NCBI GenBank assembly: GCA_964438485.1
Contig: CAYTLM010000002.1
Span: forward strand, 1 to 32,749
DNA from: an uncultured Leptospirales bacterium
GTDB lineage: Bacteria; Spirochaetota; UBA4802; UBA5550
Direction: 5' to 3'
Length of the DNA: 32,749 nucleotides
Below, piece after piece: positions 181 through 25,904 of the stretch (its first letter is position 1; the number at the start of each line of letters is the position of its first letter). The position numbers and the translations under genes were made by a program. Below the pieces are notes generated by a model that searched no databases, was not told the DNA's origin, and worked only from the letters and a program-made list of their open reading frames with translations.

Positions 181-416
181 AGAGGGAGGTTAGGAGGGTG
201 AGGTCTTAGGGAATGGGGTCTTAGGGGTCAGAGCACCATCCGCCTTCTTCTCGATACAGCTCTGCGAGCCACTCGAAGTCCGGCGAAAACGGTTACCGAG
301 TGCCGACAAAGTCGGTGTATCGAGGTAACCAGGGGTCAGAGCACCCATTCCTAACGGTTACCGAGTGCCGGCGAAGTCGGTGTATCGAGGTAACCCTAAG
401 GTCGCTAACCCCTCCG
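181..416. repeat. GC-rich mosaic repeat cluster A (BIME/MITE-like)
   Basis: GC-rich island in an AT-rich intergenic region. It is built from modules that recur at 961-1066 and 1322-1397. GGAGGG..CTTAGGG (193-211) is the reverse complement of CCCTAAG..CCCTCC (394-415). Confidence 0.7.
291..395. repeat. Two direct copies of a 40-nt hairpin unit GGTTACCGAGTGCCGRCRAAGTCGGTGTATCGAGGTAACC (291-330, 356-395)
   Basis: The copies differ at 2 positions. Each folds as GGTTACC/GGTAACC plus CCGRC/GTCGG. They are separated by module AGGGGTCAGAGCACCCATTCCTAA (331-354). Confidence 0.8.
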
Positions 417-655
417 GCAAAATTAATTTATTCTTTAAAAAGAACTGGTTGATTTTTTTGTATTTTTAATATTTTAAGGAGAAAAAATTAATTTTATTAA
501 AAATAAGAAAATTTATTAATACTTGACAATGACTATTTTTATATCGATATGTTTTGTATCATATTTTTATTTAAATTCATGTTATATGCACTAATCTTTG
601 ATTATTATAGAAACAAAGTTTTTTAATGATATATATTATACGAGGCTGATAAAAA

Positions 656-874
656 ATGAATGCTTTAAGGATTAATGGCTATATAGGGAAAGACGGTTTA
701 AAAATCGGTATTAATAAACTCAAAATGTTTAAAAACAAAAGAGTCGAAATAATAATACTTCCTAAAGATGAAAAAACTCACAAAACTGATAAGACAAATT
801 TTTTTGAAGCTGTTGGTAAAGTTGATATTGATATAGATGAGATCAATTCTTTACGTGAACTCAGCAGAATTTAA
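656..874 (+). CDS. Small antitoxin-like protein (VapB/AbrB-like size and position), 72 aa
   Basis: Antitoxin-sized ORF immediately upstream of a PIN-toxin N-terminal remnant. The family assignment is by context only. Confidence 0.45.
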   Translation: MNALRINGYIGKDGLKIGINKLKMFKNKRVEIIILPKDEKTHKTDKTNFFEAVGKVDIDIDEINSLRELSRI

Positions 875-887
875 AGGCTATTGAATA

Positions 888-1034
888 TTGGAAAAAGAAA
901 AAAAACTACTTTTAGCAGATTCAAATATAATAATTGATTTTTGGAAATTGACAATGAAGTCACCTTCTTCTCGATACAGCTCTGCTGGACTCAAAGTCCG
1001 GCGAAAAATTAGGGGTCAGAGCATCCATTCCTAA
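888..1034 (+). pseudogene. Truncated PIN-domain (VapC-like) toxin: only about 24 N-terminal codons remain before the frame runs into repeat sequence
   Basis: TTG at 888 gives LEKEKKLLLADSNIIIDFWK, the canonical LLxDxNIIIDF start of PIN toxins including the first catalytic Asp. From about 961 the frame reads through repeat modules and stops at 1032-1034. Confidence 0.55.
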
Positions 1035-1066
1035 CGGTTACCGAGTGCCGACGAAGTCGGTGTCAC
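961..1066. repeat. GC-rich mosaic repeat cluster B (same modules as cluster A in a different arrangement)
   Basis: CCTTCTTCTCGATACAGCTCTGC occurs at 963-985 and 243-265. AGGGGTCAGAGCATCCATTCCTAA at 1011-1034 matches 331-354. CGGTTACCGAGTGCCGACGAAGTCGGTGT at 1035-1063 matches 290-318 and 355-383. Confidence 0.75.
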
Positions 1067-1094
1067 CTCAAAGACCCCTCCCCGGCTCTGCCGT

Positions 1095-1232
1095 GCCCTC
1101 ATTCGACGCTTTTTGCAACATCCTGTTGCGCGTCGAAACACACACATCCTGTGTGTAGCCCACAGTGGAGGCCAGCCGTTTTTGTACATCCTGTACAGGA
1201 CTGGCACGCTGTCATCGTGACAGCAGAGGGCT
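1095..1232 (-). ncRNA. Candidate CsrA/RsmA-titrating sRNA core (CsrB/Rsm-like): closing stem plus four hairpins, three carrying ACAGGAUGU
   Basis: Minus-strand hairpins at 1136-1103, 1156-1140 and 1205-1171 have GGA in the apical loop and ACA/UGU closing pairs, while the rest of each stem is unrelated. A fourth hairpin lies at 1224-1208. The closing stem is GCCCTC/GAGGGC (1095-1100 / 1227-1232). The strand call rests on GGA versus UCC loops and on a minus-strand promoter-like site. Confidence 0.45.
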
Positions 1233-1257: not shown

Positions 1258-1286
1258 ATATTAAACTTTCAGATCCATAAAATCAA
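1258..1286 (-). promoter_or_regulatory. Sigma70-like promoter candidate for the minus-strand hairpin element
   Basis: On the minus strand: TTGATT (1286-1281), 17-nt spacer, TAATAT (1263-1258). This sits just upstream of the structured core. Confidence 0.3.
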
Positions 1287-1504: not shown

Positions 1505-1573
1505 GTTAATATATGCTTTAAAAACCAGATATACCTGATATAAGTTAAAAATTCATTAAAATGGAGAGATACT

Positions 1574-2416
1574 ATGAAAAATATAAAATCAGTTATTTTT
1601 GCCGGAGGCGGATGCAGATGTTTATGGCAGGCTGGATTTTGGGATACTGTAATTCCTGCATTAAATATCAAACCTGAAATTGTGGCAGGAGTTAGTGCTG
1701 GTGGTGCAATGGCAGTTATGGCTACCAGCGGAAGAAGTAAAGCAGGGCTTGAATCGATGAAAGCAGCTACAGCTGCAAATAAAAAAAATTTTTATATAGA
1801 GAACATGTTTACAAAGAAAAAAGTTTTCCCTCATTATGATATATACAGAAACGCTATAATAGATATAATTGATGAAAAAACTTTTGAGAAAATAAAAAAA
1901 GGTCCTGAGATAAGGGTACTTGTTGCACATCCGCCTTTTTACCTTGGACCACGAAGCGGAACATTTACAGGTCTAATGTCTTATGTAGTTGAAAAAGCAA
2001 TCAAACAGCCGGTACACCCTGCTTTTGCCGGGAAACTGGGCTTTAAATCAACTGTAGTAAAGCTAAATGACTGCAGTAATGCAGAGGAAATAGCATATGC
2101 TATTTTATGCTCATCCTGCACTCCCCCATTTGTCCCAATAATGAAGCTTGGAGAAAAAACCGCCCTGGATGGAGGAATAATAGACAATGTGCCAGTTAAG
2201 GCAATAGGGGAAGATGAAAGCAGAGGCGACATGCTTATACTTATGTCAAAAACATATAAAAAGGGCAGAATCCCTGATATTCCTGGAAGAATTTATGTTG
2301 AACCATCAAAAACACCGGATGTATTCAAATGGGACTATACCAGCCCTGAAAAACTTCAGGAAGCATACGATGATGGCTGCAGAGACGGAGAGCTGTTTAT
2401 AAAACATAACAGGTAA
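1574..2416 (+). CDS. Patatin-like phospholipase
   Basis: GGGCRC oxyanion motif, GVSAG nucleophile elbow (GxSxG), and the DGG catalytic Asp motif (LDGGIIDNVP). Confidence 0.85.
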   Translation: MKNIKSVIFAGGGCRCLWQAGFWDTVIPALNIKPEIVAGVSAGGAMAVMATSGRSKAGLESMKAATAANKKNFYIENMFTKKKVFPHYDIYRNAIIDIIDEKTFEKIKKGPEIRVLVAHPPFYLGPRSGTFTGLMSYVVEKAIKQPVHPAFAGKLGFKSTVVKLNDCSNAEEIAYAILCSSCTPPFVPIMKLGEKTALDGGIIDNVPVKAIGEDESRGDMLILMSKTYKKGRIPDIPGRIYVEPSKTPDVFKWDYTSPEKLQEAYDDGCRDGELFIKHNR

Positions 2417-2422
2417 AAAAAT

Positions 2423-2448
2423 AAATGGCATAGTTTATTGTGCCATTT
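2423..2448 (-). terminator. Hairpin AAATGGCA/TGCCATTT between convergent genes; a T-run follows on the minus strand
   Basis: 8-bp stem with a 10-nt loop. The minus-strand reading is followed by ATTTTTTT. Confidence 0.5.
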
Positions 2449-2455
2449 AATAAAA

Positions 2456-3199
2456 TCAGTTCCCGTATTTTTTTCTTATTTCAATTAATTCTTCAATATT
2501 ATCTGTGATAATTCCGGTAGCACAGGGGCTTAAAAGTTTATACTCTTCCTCTGTATTTAAAGTCCAGAAAATAACCTGAGCCTTTATCATTCTTAAAAAA
2601 AGAACAATTATTCTGGATAAAAATCCGGGAATATTGTGAAACATCTCTACCGGAATATTCAAAAAATCGGGTTTAAACTTTCTAATATCAAGTAATGTCT
2701 TTACTAAACCTTTTTTTAAATCTTCACTTCCAAAAAGCATTCCTGTCATATATCCGGAATTTTTATAATCAGGGAGAAGATCGTGCCTGAAAGATGAAAT
2801 AATAATATTTCTCTTTGACCCTGCACGTTCAAGCCTGTTGATAATTTCCGGCGCATCCTCCGGTGTTATAGTTTCATCTTTCAGCTCAATATTTAGAATC
2901 TTGTTACGAGGCATCACCTCCAGGAAAACATCAAAATCAGGAACATTTTCTCCTGAGCCAAGATCAAGCTTTTTTATGTCATCCATACTCATCTTCCTGA
3001 TATCCCTGTCAAGCCCTATCAGCCTTAACATATCAATATCATGAATAATAAGAAAAAAACCTTCATCAGTTTTTTGCACATCACACTCAATCCCATCTGC
3101 ACCAGCATTAAAAGCTTTTTCAAAGGCAAGGAAGGTGTTTTCCGGATACCGACTGCTATATCCCCTGTGACCAAGTATAAAAATTTCTTTTTGCTTCAT
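2456..3199 (-). CDS. Glycerophosphodiester phosphodiesterase (GDPD family)
   Basis: ILGHRGYSSRYPENTFLAFEKAFNAGADGIECDVQ signature. Start moved to MKQKEIF (3199) because the longer ORF overlaps the upstream gene; 3217 is an alternative start. Confidence 0.8.
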   Translation of the reverse strand: MKQKEIFILGHRGYSSRYPENTFLAFEKAFNAGADGIECDVQKTDEGFFLIIHDIDMLRLIGLDRDIRKMSMDDIKKLDLGSGENVPDFDVFLEVMPRNKILNIELKDETITPEDAPEIINRLERAGSKRNIIISSFRHDLLPDYKNSGYMTGMLFGSEDLKKGLVKTLLDIRKFKPDFLNIPVEMFHNIPGFLSRIIVLFLRMIKAQVIFWTLNTEEEYKLLSPCATGIITDNIEELIEIRKKYGN

Positions 3200-3230
3200 C
3201 CACTTGTTCCCATTCATATTAAAAGTCTGT

Positions 3231-3947
3231 TTATTTGTGGCAGATGTAAATTGCAGCAGCACCTAAAGTTTTTGCCTTATACTCTACTTTTTTAAATCCG
3301 GCACTCCTTATCCTGTTTATCAGTTGATCTTTATCAAGGAAAGTTGAAATACTCCCTGCAAGATACCTGTAGGCTTCTTTTTTACCGGAAAATAATCCCC
3401 CGAAAAAGGGAAGAATTTTTTCAAGGTAAAGATTATAGAAAAATCTTACAACTCCATTCTCTGGTCTGGTAAGCTCGAGAATAAACAGGCTCCCCTCTAC
3501 ATCAAGAACACGAAATGTTTCTGATAAAAAAATATCCACATCAGGAATATTTCTTATTCCAAATGCTATTGTTATCACATCAAAGCTCTTTTCTATAAAA
3601 GGGAGTTTACCAGCATCTGCCTGTATATTGCTCCCTGAAAGCCATCCCTTATCAACACCCTTTTTTAGCATGTTAAAAGAAAAATCAAGGGAGTAAACCT
3701 GGCCACCTGCTAAAAAAAGCTTCCGGGTTAAATCCCCTGTGCCACAGCATATATCGAGAACTTTTTTATTTTCAAGCTTACCTGCAAGCTTTACCAAATC
3801 CTTTCTCCAGAAATTATCTATTCCTAAAGAAAGAAACCTGTTTAAAAAATCATAGGTTGGTACAATTGAATCAAACATTGTGCGCACATAGCGTTTTTTA
3901 TCACCTGGGTCACTATTGTTCACTTCATAGTTAGAGTAATCTTTCAT
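3231..3947 (-). CDS. ubiE: Demethylmenaquinone/ubiquinone C-methyltransferase (UbiE/MenG family)
   Basis: MFDSIVPTYDFLNRFLSLGIDNFWRK N-terminal signature and the SAM-binding motif VLDICCGTGD. Confidence 0.85.
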   Translation of the reverse strand: MKDYSNYEVNNSDPGDKKRYVRTMFDSIVPTYDFLNRFLSLGIDNFWRKDLVKLAGKLENKKVLDICCGTGDLTRKLFLAGGQVYSLDFSFNMLKKGVDKGWLSGSNIQADAGKLPFIEKSFDVITIAFGIRNIPDVDIFLSETFRVLDVEGSLFILELTRPENGVVRFFYNLYLEKILPFFGGLFSGKKEAYRYLAGSISTFLDKDQLINRIRSAGFKKVEYKAKTLGAAAIYICHK

Positions 3948-6218: not shown

Positions 6219-7568
6219 TCACCAATTAATTTCAAACCACCTTCTCCTGTTGTATCTTCTAAACACAAAAAAAGCATATGCTAAAATCGATGCATTCATA
6301 GACCACCATATTCCAGGTGCTCCAATCCCCATAACAATACCAAGCAGAAAACAGAGTGGAATTCTTATAAACCAGGAGCTAAGTACAACAATAAGCATAA
6401 CACCCCTTGTGTCCCCTGCTCCATTTAAAGCTCCTCCTAAAGTAAGAGCCACAGCCAAAAATGGCTCACTTATCATACTTATGCGAATATAGCGCACGCT
6501 TTCTCTTATTACAATTTCATCAGAAGAAACCAGTGTTGCAATAAACCCTGCATTTAAAACGATCACTAAAGTTATTGCTGTAATAATAATTACGCCAAGT
6601 GCCATTGTTATTAATCCAGCCCTGTAAGCATGATCATATTTTTTTTCACCCATAAGGTTACCAACTATTACTGCATTAGCCATGTTAAGTGCAATAGCAG
6701 GTAAAAATATAGCTGATTCTATACGGCCCCCATTTGTAAAAGCTGCAATTATTTCAACATTATTTTCAGGTAGTGCACTCAGTATAAGAAAAAGCACTGT
6801 TCCACCAATCTGCCATGAAATCTGCTGAAGCCCTGTAGGCCATCCAATTTTAAACAATATCCCAAGCAAGGACTTAATAAAGCTTCCGGTTTCCTTTATA
6901 AATTTCTTAACATGTAGAAAATTTATTGTACTCCCTATAAATACACTTACAACTGTTGAAAGAGCTATACCGTAATAAGAAACAGGAGTATAGAAAACAA
7001 AATAAAAGTTTAAAACAACATTCATTAAGCAGACAATCCCCATTGTTATAAGGGATTTTTTAACTCCCTTTGTAGCGCGAAGAATACCATTGCTGCTTAT
7101 AAGAAAATAATGAAAAATTAAACCAACTGCATAAATCCTAATCAGGGGAATTGCTATTTTCTTAATCTCATCTGGAACATTCATTATATTAACAACAGGT
7201 CCTGTTGTTACAAGTCCGGCTACTCCAAAAAATACGCCAGCAACTGCAGCAGATACAATAGATGTAAAAACAGAATCTGAAACACCCTTGGTGTCCCCGG
7301 AAGCAAAGATCCTTGATATTGTTGCAACAATCCCGGTTGTTAATGAATTAGCTACAACAACAAATATAAAATATATCTGCATGGAAAACCCAACAGCAGC
7401 CTGATATTCTCTGCCAAGCTTACCTGCAATAAATACATCTGTAAGGCTGATTAAAAATTCAAATCCCATTATTAAGATCATGGGCCAGGCCATGCTCCAG
7501 CTTAATGCTGCAAGATTTCTGTATTCATCACTCTTAATATAACCAATCAAAGCCTTTATATTTTTCAA
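6219..7568 (-). CDS. MATE family efflux transporter
   Basis: About 12 hydrophobic helices and typical MATE length and sequence pattern. TTG start. Confidence 0.85.
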   Translation of the reverse strand: MKNIKALIGYIKSDEYRNLAALSWSMAWPMILIMGFEFLISLTDVFIAGKLGREYQAAVGFSMQIYFIFVVVANSLTTGIVATISRIFASGDTKGVSDSVFTSIVSAAVAGVFFGVAGLVTTGPVVNIMNVPDEIKKIAIPLIRIYAVGLIFHYFLISSNGILRATKGVKKSLITMGIVCLMNVVLNFYFVFYTPVSYYGIALSTVVSVFIGSTINFLHVKKFIKETGSFIKSLLGILFKIGWPTGLQQISWQIGGTVLFLILSALPENNVEIIAAFTNGGRIESAIFLPAIALNMANAVIVGNLMGEKKYDHAYRAGLITMALGVIIITAITLVIVLNAGFIATLVSSDEIVIRESVRYIRISMISEPFLAVALTLGGALNGAGDTRGVMLIVVLSSWFIRIPLCFLLGIVMGIGAPGIWWSMNASILAYAFFVFRRYNRRRWFEINW

Positions 7569-24824: not shown

Positions 24825-25110
24825 TTTATATTTATCCAGATTTCAATGCATGCAAAGGCATGGACTCATCTGAATAGATAAATTCAATTTAATCCTAATG
24901 GATTAACGGGAAAAGGAAATAATACTTTTTTTGAAAATTTTTTATATTTATAATTTTTCACACACACATAAACAAAACAAGCAATTTTTATCTTTTTTTG
25001 TTTAATATAGGAATTAAACAAAGCTATTAATTTTGTAAATCTTTTTTTTAAAAAAAAACAGTTTTTTTGAAAATTTTGCATATTCAGGTGCAATTCAATG
25101 GTATTTTCTG

Positions 25111-25374
25111 TCAATTCCACTTTTTTCGCACCTGCTCACCATTCTTTTTAATCTCCTTTTCTCTTTTAGCCATATTATCAAGTTCCTTGAACAGATGATA
25201 AAAACCCACAACCATTCCAAGAAGAGTTCCTATTGCAACAAACAGAGGTGATTTATCAAAATACAAATCAAGCCTGTAGCCTCCATAAACAAAAATAAAA
25301 ATTATAATAGCCAGCTGCATACCTATGGTAATATTGGCAAAAACAACCTGGGCAGTCCTGTCTTTCTTTTCCAA
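25111..25374 (-). CDS. AtpZ/AtpI-like small membrane protein (ATPase_gene1 family)
   Basis: Two hydrophobic helices, located upstream of the atp operon. TTG start with GAGG RBS. Confidence 0.6.
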   Translation of the reverse strand: MEKKDRTAQVVFANITIGMQLAIIIFIFVYGGYRLDLYFDKSPLFVAIGTLLGMVVGFYHLFKELDNMAKREKEIKKNGEQVRKKWN

Positions 25375-25630
25375 ATCAGCCTCTTTTTAAATAATTATTA
25401 ATACCTGTAAGCTTTATAATACCACTGATGCTTATTTCTTAATATTAACCTAATTTACAAATTTTACAACAAAAATATAATTATTTGATTTATAAAGCTG
25501 AGCAGCTAATGTTTTTTTCCCCCTTGTTCGATAATTTGCATATACTACAAAATCAGAAGCAGCTCAATCATTTTATTGTATCTGATTTTAATTATCAAGG
25601 CATTTACTATAATTAAAAGGAACCATAATA

Positions 25631-25879
25631 ATGAATATTTCTATTAATCTGATAAATACTGGAACTGAATTTATAGCAAACTGCCCTGAACTGGATATAA
25701 ACTGTTATGGCTCCAATAAGGACGAAGCAATGCAGAGAATACAAAAGGTTATTGCTTTTTATATTGAATCAGCAAAAGAACTTGGTCTTGATATTAATCC
25801 GCTAAAAGAAATCTCAATTGATGGTTTTGAAAACGTATACACCTATTTTAACAGCCTTTCTAAAGATACAATAAACTAG
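25631..25879 (+). CDS. HicB-like (UPF0150) antitoxin-fold protein, no adjacent HicA
   Basis: FIANCPELDINCYGSNKDEAMQRIQKVIAFYIE matches the HicB N-terminal pattern. Confidence 0.5.
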   Translation: MNISINLINTGTEFIANCPELDINCYGSNKDEAMQRIQKVIAFYIESAKELGLDINPLKEISIDGFENVYTYFNSLSKDTIN

Positions 25880-25904
25880 GAAAAACTATTGCATCAGCAA
25901 TATC

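Follow-up and report, generated by a model that had tools for sequence, protein, structure and literature searches.

What is the cluster of GGA-tipped hairpins on the minus strand at 1095-1231 of contig CAYTLM010000002.1, a 32,749-nt stretch of DNA from an uncultured Leptospirales bacterium (the window, by which we mean that whole stretch)? The original prediction, made from the sequence, was a candidate small RNA (sRNA) acting as a sponge for CsrA or RsmA. We consider that the minus strand of 1095-1231 may be a CsrA-type decoy hairpin module situated on strain-variable mosaic DNA, with transcription, CsrA binding, and titration of CsrA as predicted steps, and we place the probability of this reading at roughly 0.4. 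A 9-nt loop sequence (the 9-mer) is kept across phyla on variable stems and comes with a strand asymmetry of the RNA type; thus, the most economical explanation is a conserved site for an RNA-binding protein. To our knowledge, CsrA is the only RNA-binding protein that recognizes GGA in such loops.

The minus strand of the domain has three copies of the 9-mer, ACAGGATGT, and there are none elsewhere in the 32.7 kb, compared with 0.20 copies expected from dinucleotide shuffles, and none of 100 shuffles reached three. All three copies form the tips of hairpins whose stems are unrelated, as had been predicted, and the motif count and the minimum free energy (MFE) fold both reproduce this. The MFE of minus-strand 1090-1240 is -64.7 kcal/mol (z = -4.1), the centroid fold agrees on the closed domain, and this fold is unchanged within a 255-nt context. 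The features of the domain are as follows.

1095-1231, minus strand: closed multi-hairpin domain, with a closing helix of GCCCUC (1231-1226) and GAGGGC (1100-1095) that encloses H4, H3, a weak hairpin, H2, and H1.
1103-1136 (1102-1137 with an 8-bp outer stem), minus strand: H1, a two-tier hairpin, UCGACGC / GCAACA-GGA-UGUUGC / AAAAA / GCGUCGA.
1118-1126, minus strand: ACAGGAUGU copy 1, from the motif count.
1140-1156, minus strand: H2, a simple hairpin in the MFE fold, ACACACA-GGA-UGUGUGU.
1144-1152, minus strand: ACAGGAUGU copy 2, from the motif count.
1171-1205, minus strand: H3, a two-tier hairpin, GCCAGUC / UGUACA-GGA-UGUACA / AAAAC / GGCUGGC.
1186-1194, minus strand: ACAGGAUGU copy 3, from the motif count.
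1208-1224, minus strand: H4, a hairpin without GGA, GCUGUCA-CGA-UGACAGC, present in the folds of both strands.

H1 and H3 have the same architecture, with a 7-bp outer stem (7-8 bp in H1), a 6-bp inner stem (GCAACA/UGUUGC in H1), GGA at the apex, and, 3' of the inner stem, an A-rich internal loop of 5 nt (AAAAA in H1), and the MFE fold agrees with the earlier description of these two hairpins. Beyond the 9-mer and the A-run, H1, H2, and H3 have nothing in common. All stems and the three 9-mers are intact, and the sole irregularity is one U.G pair in the outer stem of H3 (GCCAGUC/GGCUGGC), which is a C.A mismatch on the plus strand. Other parts of the earlier description need correction. The closing helix exists, but its right arm, given as 1227-1232, is at 1226-1231. 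H4 and the closing helix do complete the domain, which had been called four-way; counting a weak 4-bp hairpin at about 1158-1168, the junction is five-way. The stems do differ, as required for the covariation that was claimed, but the comparison is among three neighboring paralogous hairpins and not among orthologues.

The published consensus for CsrA binding from systematic evolution of ligands by exponential enrichment (SELEX) is RUACARGGAUGU, with the GGA in a hairpin loop. The ACA, GGA, and UGU blocks are present in the 9-mer, and the R is missing. An RNA from the minus strand of 1095-1231 would display three near-optimal CsrA/RsmA hairpins (ACA-GGA-UGU), in each of which a short stem carries the GGA at its tip, and each CsrA dimer would span two of the GGA hairpins. 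The GGA-to-GGA spacings in the domain are 42 and 26 nt, which is within the bridging range of CsrA. If a CsrA dimer bridges pairs of GGA hairpins at these spacings, transcription of the domain would titrate CsrA from the leaders of messenger RNAs.

The likeness to the known decoys CsrB/CsrC/RsmB and RsmX/Y/Z (RF00018, RF00084) lies in several short hairpins with unrelated stems that present CAGGAUG with an apical GGA. The CsrB-type repeat unit recognized in the original prediction was matched against the annotated csrB of E. coli K-12 (369 nt, 22 GGA), which has six CAGGAUG hairpins. The additional stem bases of these hairpins are also unrelated (cat/atg, acac/gtgt, ctc/gag, actt/aagt, gtt/aac), and the window hairpins are the CsrB CAGGAUG core with one added A..U pair. 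Thus, the three ACAGGAUGU hairpins have the repeated apical GGA, the unrelated stems, and the CAGGA[U/A/C]G form of a CsrB-type RNA, whereas a covariance-model match, the GGA density, a promoter and Rho-independent terminator of its own, and conservation of the locus are lacking. The window hairpins depart from CsrB-type RNAs in their two tiers, their A-rich 3' internal loop, and the helix that closes the domain, and they are unconserved and without a canonical terminator. The host phylum, Spirochaetota, is also different, and the CsrA antagonist proposed there in the literature is a protein, FliW. In published surveys, csrA, usually together with fliW, is found in Firmicutes, Spirochaetes, beta-, delta-, and epsilon-Proteobacteria, Planctomycetes, and Acidobacteria, and in Leptospira, Borrelia, and Treponema it is located beside fliW in the flagellar operon. 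RNA antagonists of CsrA are established in Gammaproteobacteria only, and elsewhere this role is ascribed to FliW.

Does the element have counterparts in other genomes? A set of 185,579 genomes was scanned for sites with the 9-mer in three spaced copies, and pair and triple scans were performed on viral and metagenome collections as well. The genome scan gave mostly tandem repeats, plus about 30 loci (fetched loci and contigs carry our L numbers) in which the 9-mer caps hairpins of differing stems. The hosts of these arrays include four Spirochaetota metagenome-assembled genomes (MAGs; L121, L163, L206, L218), Bacillus, Lysinibacillus, Robertmurraya, Bacteriovoracaceae, Pyrinomonadaceae, Akkermansiaceae, and Burkholderiales, and, among Gammaproteobacteria, Ruminobacter, Colwellia, Thalassotalea, Bermanella, Steroidobacteraceae, and a groundwater gammaproteobacterium. 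The metagenome scan added arrays L258 and L308, and the pair and triple scans of viral contigs gave essentially no true arrays with differing stems. With the exception of Akkermansiaceae, the hairpin-type arrays that we found belong to groups published as csrA-bearing. They are intergenic with unrelated neighbors; one Lysinibacillus has 7 or more such loci, and B. subtilis has 8. Neither a common neighbor gene nor a transposase was found beside the Spirochaetota arrays when these were sought. A fifth Spirochaetota MAG (L231) was rejected as an array since its copies are not hairpins. L250-L307, from termite-gut and other metagenomes, contain many tandem repeats of the minisatellite type (period 14-50 nt) in which ACATCCTGT occurs by chance; these have no relation to the hairpin arrays and swamped the pattern scans.

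From these loci, 22 non-redundant two-tier modules were assembled, including H1 and H3 of the window and covering Spirochaetota, Bacillales, Bacteriovoracaceae, Gammaproteobacteria, and Acidobacteria. On the strand that reads UCC in the loop, the geometry is an outer stem of 5-9 bp, a 5' loop of 3-7 nt that is often T-rich, an inner stem, the 9-mer, and, on the 3' side, a loop that usually has 0-4 nt. In 18 of the 22 modules, the 5' loop is the larger of the two, and the stems all differ. Most stem columns of the alignment contain three or four Watson-Crick pair types, a descriptive count only, since the modules were chosen for pairing and pair counts on them are circular. Twins of H1 are found in L163 (GCCGTCGC-TTTTTT-GC ACATCCTGT GC-G-GCGACGG) and in L206 (GCAGACGC / CGG ACAGGATGT CCG / AAAA / GCGTCTGC). 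A covariance model (R1) built on 20 modules from other taxa, with the window left out, was run on both strands of the window. The three highest matches are H3 (20.5 bits, E = 4e-4), H1 (20.4 bits, E = 4e-4), and H2 (13.3 bits, a local match), and the next is at 10.6 bits, but most of the score comes from the 9-mer, which was itself the bait for the training loci.

The original prediction stated that no such architecture had been described. This needs qualification, since Bacillaceae-1 (RF01690) in Rfam describes this kind of hairpin but places it on the opposite strand. Like the window hairpins, those of Bacillaceae-1 are two-tier, with RUCCU apical loops (AGGAY on the other strand) and ACA/UGU-like closing pairs, and the Bacillales arrays that were fished with the window 9-mer are RF01690 matches on the UCC strand. 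H1 and H2 align as a hairpin pair to both RUCCU loops of the RF01690 model. The window element differs from Bacillaceae-1 in its phylum, in its internal-loop sequences, and in copy number, with one copy seen compared with the 8 of B. subtilis. The window element is an instance of a cross-phylum class of two-tier arrays that includes Bacillaceae-1 read on the opposite strand.

CsrA decoys outside Gammaproteobacteria have already been proposed, and none has been validated. In 2015, such a role was proposed for Bacillaceae-1 and for TwoAYGGAY. Gardner and Eldai pointed out that the reverse complement of Bacillaceae-1 matches the CsrA-binding motif, which is an unvalidated prediction; the discoverers of Bacillaceae-1 were unsure of its strand. 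A 'CsrA-like non-coding RNA (ncRNA)' of Leptospira biflexa is a computational and unvalidated proposal based on GGA-motif density alone; it is likewise a proposed CsrA-titrating RNA of a spirochaete, and we liken it to the window element by description only. In the literature, we found no follow-up of the TwoAYGGAY/Bacillaceae-1 prediction, and a search on the 9-mer gave only unrelated primer and response-element papers. We also found no earlier description of the cross-phylum two-tier geometry, the strand evidence, the presence in Spirochaetota, or the terminator-adjacent position discussed below. It is possible, and short of probable, that the two-tier ACAGGAUGU arrays form a single cross-phylum class of CsrA-titrating RNA in lineages thought to use FliW only (Spirochaetota, Bacillota, Bdellovibrionota, Acidobacteriota), with arrays that can sit on strain-variable DNA and, in Proteobacteria, directly behind intrinsic terminators.

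Which strand of these arrays is the RNA? In fold energy, 19 of 22 arrays are more stable when read as the GGA strand, with differences of 1 to 44 kcal/mol, and the UCC strand contains more C than G. Six isolated mismatches in the stems of hairpin-type loci read as C.A on the UCC strand, which is U.G on the GGA strand, compared with no G.T; window H3 contributes one of the six, in its outer stem. An initial tally that included tandem-repeat loci was uninformative (TG/GT 6 vs CA 4), and the result became one-sided only after limiting it to hairpin-type loci. Among 57 unique hairpins at most one base from the 9-mer, the base 3' of GGA is U in 49, C in 5, A in 1, and G in 1. Seven of the eight variants are at this base, while the A preceding GGA is invariant. 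The variable base is the degenerate position of the CsrB repeat, CAGGA[U/A/C]G, in the consensus quoted by the original prediction. In Ruminobacter, L129 (about 350-620) and L132 (about 2250-2650) have apparent CsrB/Rsm-type sRNA genes with many GGA and ACAGGAUGU hairpins; each ends on the GGA strand in a terminator with a T-run, and neither has an Rfam match at the gathering score. Class-level evidence, therefore, favors the GGA strand as the RNA, in agreement with the minus-strand choice of the original prediction.

A number of observations weigh against a decoy at the window locus. With regard to the strand, the window fold energies are neutral. The plus strand of 1090-1240 folds to -65.6 kcal/mol (z = -5.0), so the element itself has no fold-energy bias between strands, and folding gives no strand choice here. 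In L206, seven hairpins are oriented one way, and one perfect two-tier module (6686-6725) is reversed. In L121 and in Lysinibacillus, weak terminator-like sites follow the array on the UCC strand. No Rfam family matches the window at gathering thresholds, and the Csr/Rsm families have no match in 1-1700 even at E<=10, an absence that had been anticipated for a new class. The sole relevant match at E<=10 is Bacillaceae-1 at 1101-1155 on the plus strand (18.5 bits, E = 2.1), below the gathering score of 35. The GGA density is far under that of CsrB, 3 in the element of 138 nt compared with 22 in 369 nt; the 453-nt patch in which the element is located has 10 GGA on the minus strand and 5 on the plus strand, a difference that speaks for the minus strand.

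The same observations bear on an RNA from the plus strand with AUCCU loops, read through from the promoter of the toxin-antitoxin genes upstream and acting as a 3' stabilizer or insulator, or pairing through its UCC loops with the GGA of Shine-Dalgarno sequences. Both flanking genes are encoded on the plus strand, no terminator follows the upstream 72-aa open reading frame (ORF), and a plus-strand element would be read through from the toxin-antitoxin promoter. The slightly better plus-strand fold, the plus-strand position of the only Rfam similarity, and the terminator-like sites in L121 and Lysinibacillus are also in its favor. We regard this explanation as quite improbable, given that the fold asymmetry and the wobble pairs of the class favor the GGA strand, that the outer stem of H3 has its C.A mismatch on the plus strand, and that the Bacillaceae-1 annotation comes from authors who were themselves in doubt about orientation. 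Furthermore, we know of no protein or mechanism that recognizes ACAUCCUGU loops.

A minus-strand decoy must also be expressed, and the signals for this are poor. In a promoter scan with a threshold of 9 of 12 hexamer matches, the site TTGATT-17-TAATAT, noted in the original prediction, is present but falls below the threshold. No terminator (a simple hairpin with a T-run) was found on either strand of 100-1700. The minus-strand GGA sites noted at 1021-1034 are present and lie within a second folded domain.

1258-1286, minus strand: candidate promoter TTGATT-17-TAATAT, with 8 of 12 matches; it is weak evidence, in AT-rich DNA.
1004-1078, minus strand: second folded domain, in which GGGGUC (1078-1073) pairs with GACCCC (1017-1012), followed by UAAUUUUU (1011-1004); it contains UUAGGAAUGGAUG.

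Promoter-like matches are frequent in 100-1700 because the flanks are AT-rich. The 1004-1078 domain is mostly a copy of a local repeat, the 53-nt family described below; if it is the 3' end, the minus-strand RNA could be about 250 nt long with five GGA. The best promoter candidate for the patatin gene is at 1441-1468 on the plus strand, downstream of the element. With E. coli and B. subtilis CsrA queries, tblastn gave no csrA match in the window or in the fetched loci. Elsewhere, five loci from four unrelated families have an intrinsic terminator on the GGA strand, and the ACAGGAUGU array begins 0-7 nt past its T-run.

L195 580-1000; L200 6700-6910; L215; L224 3250-3354; L167 4354-4530, GGA strand: terminator-adjacent arrays in Colwellia (two species), Bermanella, Steroidobacteraceae, and Bacteriovoracaceae.

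In Bermanella L195, the terminator closes a GGA-rich CsrB-like sRNA that is undetected by Rfam models, and the array is next on the same strand. An array just behind a terminator would be transcribed only by read-through, or else such arrays insert at terminators.

The surroundings of the element show that it is not conserved at this site. The element is preceded by a decayed toxin-antitoxin locus, with the following features.

656-874, plus strand: 72-aa ORF, a putative antitoxin, the partner of the PIN gene in all related cassettes; it has no Pfam match.
888-947, plus strand: remnant of a PIN-domain (VapC-type) toxin gene, its first 20 codons, cut off by the patch.
948-1400, no strand assigned: GC-rich mosaic patch carrying the element, about 55% GC compared with about 20% in the background.

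One relative, L244, has a patatin gene 95% identical to that of the window and aligns at 99.7% identity over window 364-947 and at 95% over 1566-3863. Between these blocks, a complete PIN-domain (VapC-type) gene of 139 aa directly follows the 72-aa ORF (cassette at L244 293-944), and the contig ends inside repeats. In the window cassette (656-947), the 72-aa ORF is intact, while the toxin gene has 20 codons left; after these, about 150 nt between TTTTTGGA repeats have been deleted, and the patch comes next. The 72-aa ORF and a PIN gene also form eight other cassettes (L313-L320), which align through window 947 where their contigs reach, and never past it, and neither the patch nor the 9-mer is present in them. 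The cassette, with PIN proteins of 129-139 aa, is found in unrelated genomic contexts across related metagenomes and is, therefore, a mobile type II toxin-antitoxin cassette. The element is absent upstream of patatin in L244, L241, L245-248, and L310-312 (patatin identities of 95%, 86%, 85%, 77%, and 72%), and the relatives at 86%, 85%, 77%, and 72% have no cassette upstream of patatin either. The hairpin-module model has zero matches in 63 kb of relatives' contigs, and the 9-mer and the patch repeat motifs are absent from a further 36 kb of a strain with 94% RecA identity. Absence from close relatives had been named beforehand as a finding against the prediction, and it is what we observed, even in the relative whose flanks match at 99.7% and 95%. 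The element is, therefore, strain-specific at this position, and since a strain-variable patch has replaced most of vapC, the module is a recent or unstable acquisition.

This history raises the question of whether the element is an inactive relic, a fragment of a GGA-hairpin array brought in by repeat recombination during decay of the toxin-antitoxin locus, without useful expression or present function. We judge this to be unlikely. The pseudogenization of vapC by internal deletion and replacement, the presence of only three sites, the lack of a canonical terminator, the weak promoter, the lack of conservation in relatives, and the lack of strand asymmetry in this copy are all as expected for a relic. 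On the other hand, the 9-mers and stems are intact apart from the one U.G pair, and intact stems together with a closing helix of their own imply a recent origin or continuing constraint.

The original prediction correctly placed the element inside a mosaic repeat patch, and the structure of this patch bears on a different explanation, that the element is a mobile or recombinogenic palindromic repeat acting at the DNA level. Such a repeat would resemble a repetitive extragenic palindromic (REP) sequence, a bacterial interspersed mosaic element (BIME), or a miniature inverted-repeat transposable element (MITE), and its cruciform or single-stranded form would be recognized by a transposase or host factor; the patch would have moved into or rearranged the locus, and any RNA would be incidental. 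The patch is GC-rich and built of locally repeated modules, it starts (at 948) exactly where homology to all related cassettes, which continue into an intact PIN gene, comes to an end, and it is missing where the flanks are 99.7% identical. The L244 contig breaks within repeats. A 9-bp inverted repeat, CCTTCTTCT / AGAAGAAGG (965-973, 1363-1371), is found near the patch ends, without a target-site duplication, and as regards MITE features, the event was a replacement and not a clean insertion. As with REP/BIME clusters of imperfect palindromes and other short repeats between genes, arrays in other taxa are intergenic with unrelated neighbors and multi-copy, in L206 they occur in both orientations, and some abut terminators in a fixed orientation, as if at an insertion target.

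We nevertheless consider a DNA-level repeat somewhat unlikely. The stems within one array all differ, so the hairpins are not copies of one master sequence, whereas the stems are the conserved part of REP elements, which have GTAG flanks. The same 9-mer loop is kept across phyla, whereas REP sequences are lineage-specific as far as we know. There is no GTAG/CTAC flank at the element, and there is no RAYT (REP-associated tyrosine transposase) or other transposase gene among the window ORFs or beside the other arrays. The window, about 100 kb of relatives' contigs, the metagenome scan, and plasmid and phage collections (blastn of the patch) yielded no second copy of the element. In addition, the strand asymmetry (19 of 22 arrays; six C.A and no G.T mismatches) would not be expected of a purely DNA-level palindrome. 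No paper linking CsrA to REP elements was found. Type III toxin-antitoxin RNA, integron attC sites, rolling-circle origins, and clustered regularly interspaced short palindromic repeats (CRISPR) were considered and dropped, since a conserved 9-mer with a 3-nt loop on variable stems is at odds with what is conserved in them or with how their repeats are organized.

We return, then, to a CsrA-type decoy module on strain-variable DNA as our reading of 1095-1231. The part of the original prediction that stands is the CsrA-type hairpin unit. The part that does not is an autonomous conserved sRNA gene; such a gene is not supported in this organism, in view of a single unconserved copy in rearranging mosaic DNA, with no canonical terminator, a weak promoter, and no counterpart in relatives. 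What would follow if hairpin arrays with the optimal CsrA loop act as decoys in spirochaetes, Bacillales, and other phyla? CsrA decoys could come and go between strains, the existence of CsrA RNA sponges outside Gammaproteobacteria would become directly testable through a defined 9-mer and module geometry, and the orphan motif Bacillaceae-1 would gain a function. If the cross-phylum reading is true, the window element would rank as the first candidate for a spirochaetal CsrA decoy whose sites are near-optimal. For the locus alone, the stakes are smaller, as this is a single unconserved copy in a decayed toxin-antitoxin site.

The other sequences of the patch are also repeated locally. A second GC-rich patch at 150-410 has modules in common with the 948-1400 patch, in direct orientation, with the toxin-antitoxin cassette in between. 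A 53-nt repeat family, which carries the CCGNCGAAGTCGG hairpin, is found at 266-318, 331-383, and 1011-1063. The sequence CCTTCTTCTCGATACAGCTCTGC is present once per patch, at 243-265 and 963-985, GGGGTCAGAGC occurs four times in the two patches, and G-rich TTAGGG-like stretches are located at about 180-235 and about 1340-1395. None of the patch modules was seen in about 100 kb of relatives' contigs; pairs of GGGGTCAGAGC in relatives L245-248 were rejected as repeats because they are inside coding sequence. Patch A of the window has an alternating-arm design, GGTAACC...GGTTACC...GGTAACC, at 324-397. Two promoter-like sites with 10 of 12 matches and identical hexamers, TTGTCA-16-TATTAT, face outward around the 948-1400 patch, at 927-954 on the minus strand and 1441-1468 on the plus strand.

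Some arrays in other genomes have features of their own. In Lysinibacillus sp. (L144, L146, L151, L158, L178, L194, L230), the Bacillaceae-1 hairpins are inside a repeat of about 300 nt at no fewer than 7 loci in one genome, and this repeat also holds a GTGGGG...CCCCAC hairpin and a ACGGTCAG...CTGACCGT hairpin. In the arrays of L165, L167, and L190, adjacent modules have common outer-stem arms, X...X'...X, such that an arm can pair to the left or to the right, the alternating-arm design also seen in patch A of the window. L206 has eight GGA-type hairpins between divergent genes at 6629-7000, one of which (TTGGACATCCATGTCCAA) is the SELEX-like ACA-N-GGA-UGU.

The window as a whole is chromosomal and carries genes for ATP synthase, recA, leuA, proC, and the like. 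Three of its proteins, looked up as exact sequences in public assemblies, gave no record. All named matches to its RecA are Spirochaetota or Leptospirales MAGs, the best at 94-95%, and the named patatin matches at about 61% are likewise Spirochaetota. A region of about 1.1 kb at 24825-25904 has no ORF of at least 120 aa and no Rfam match. In relatives L321 and L322, the matching region has small called genes of 88, 32, and 84 aa, one of which is ATPase_gene1.

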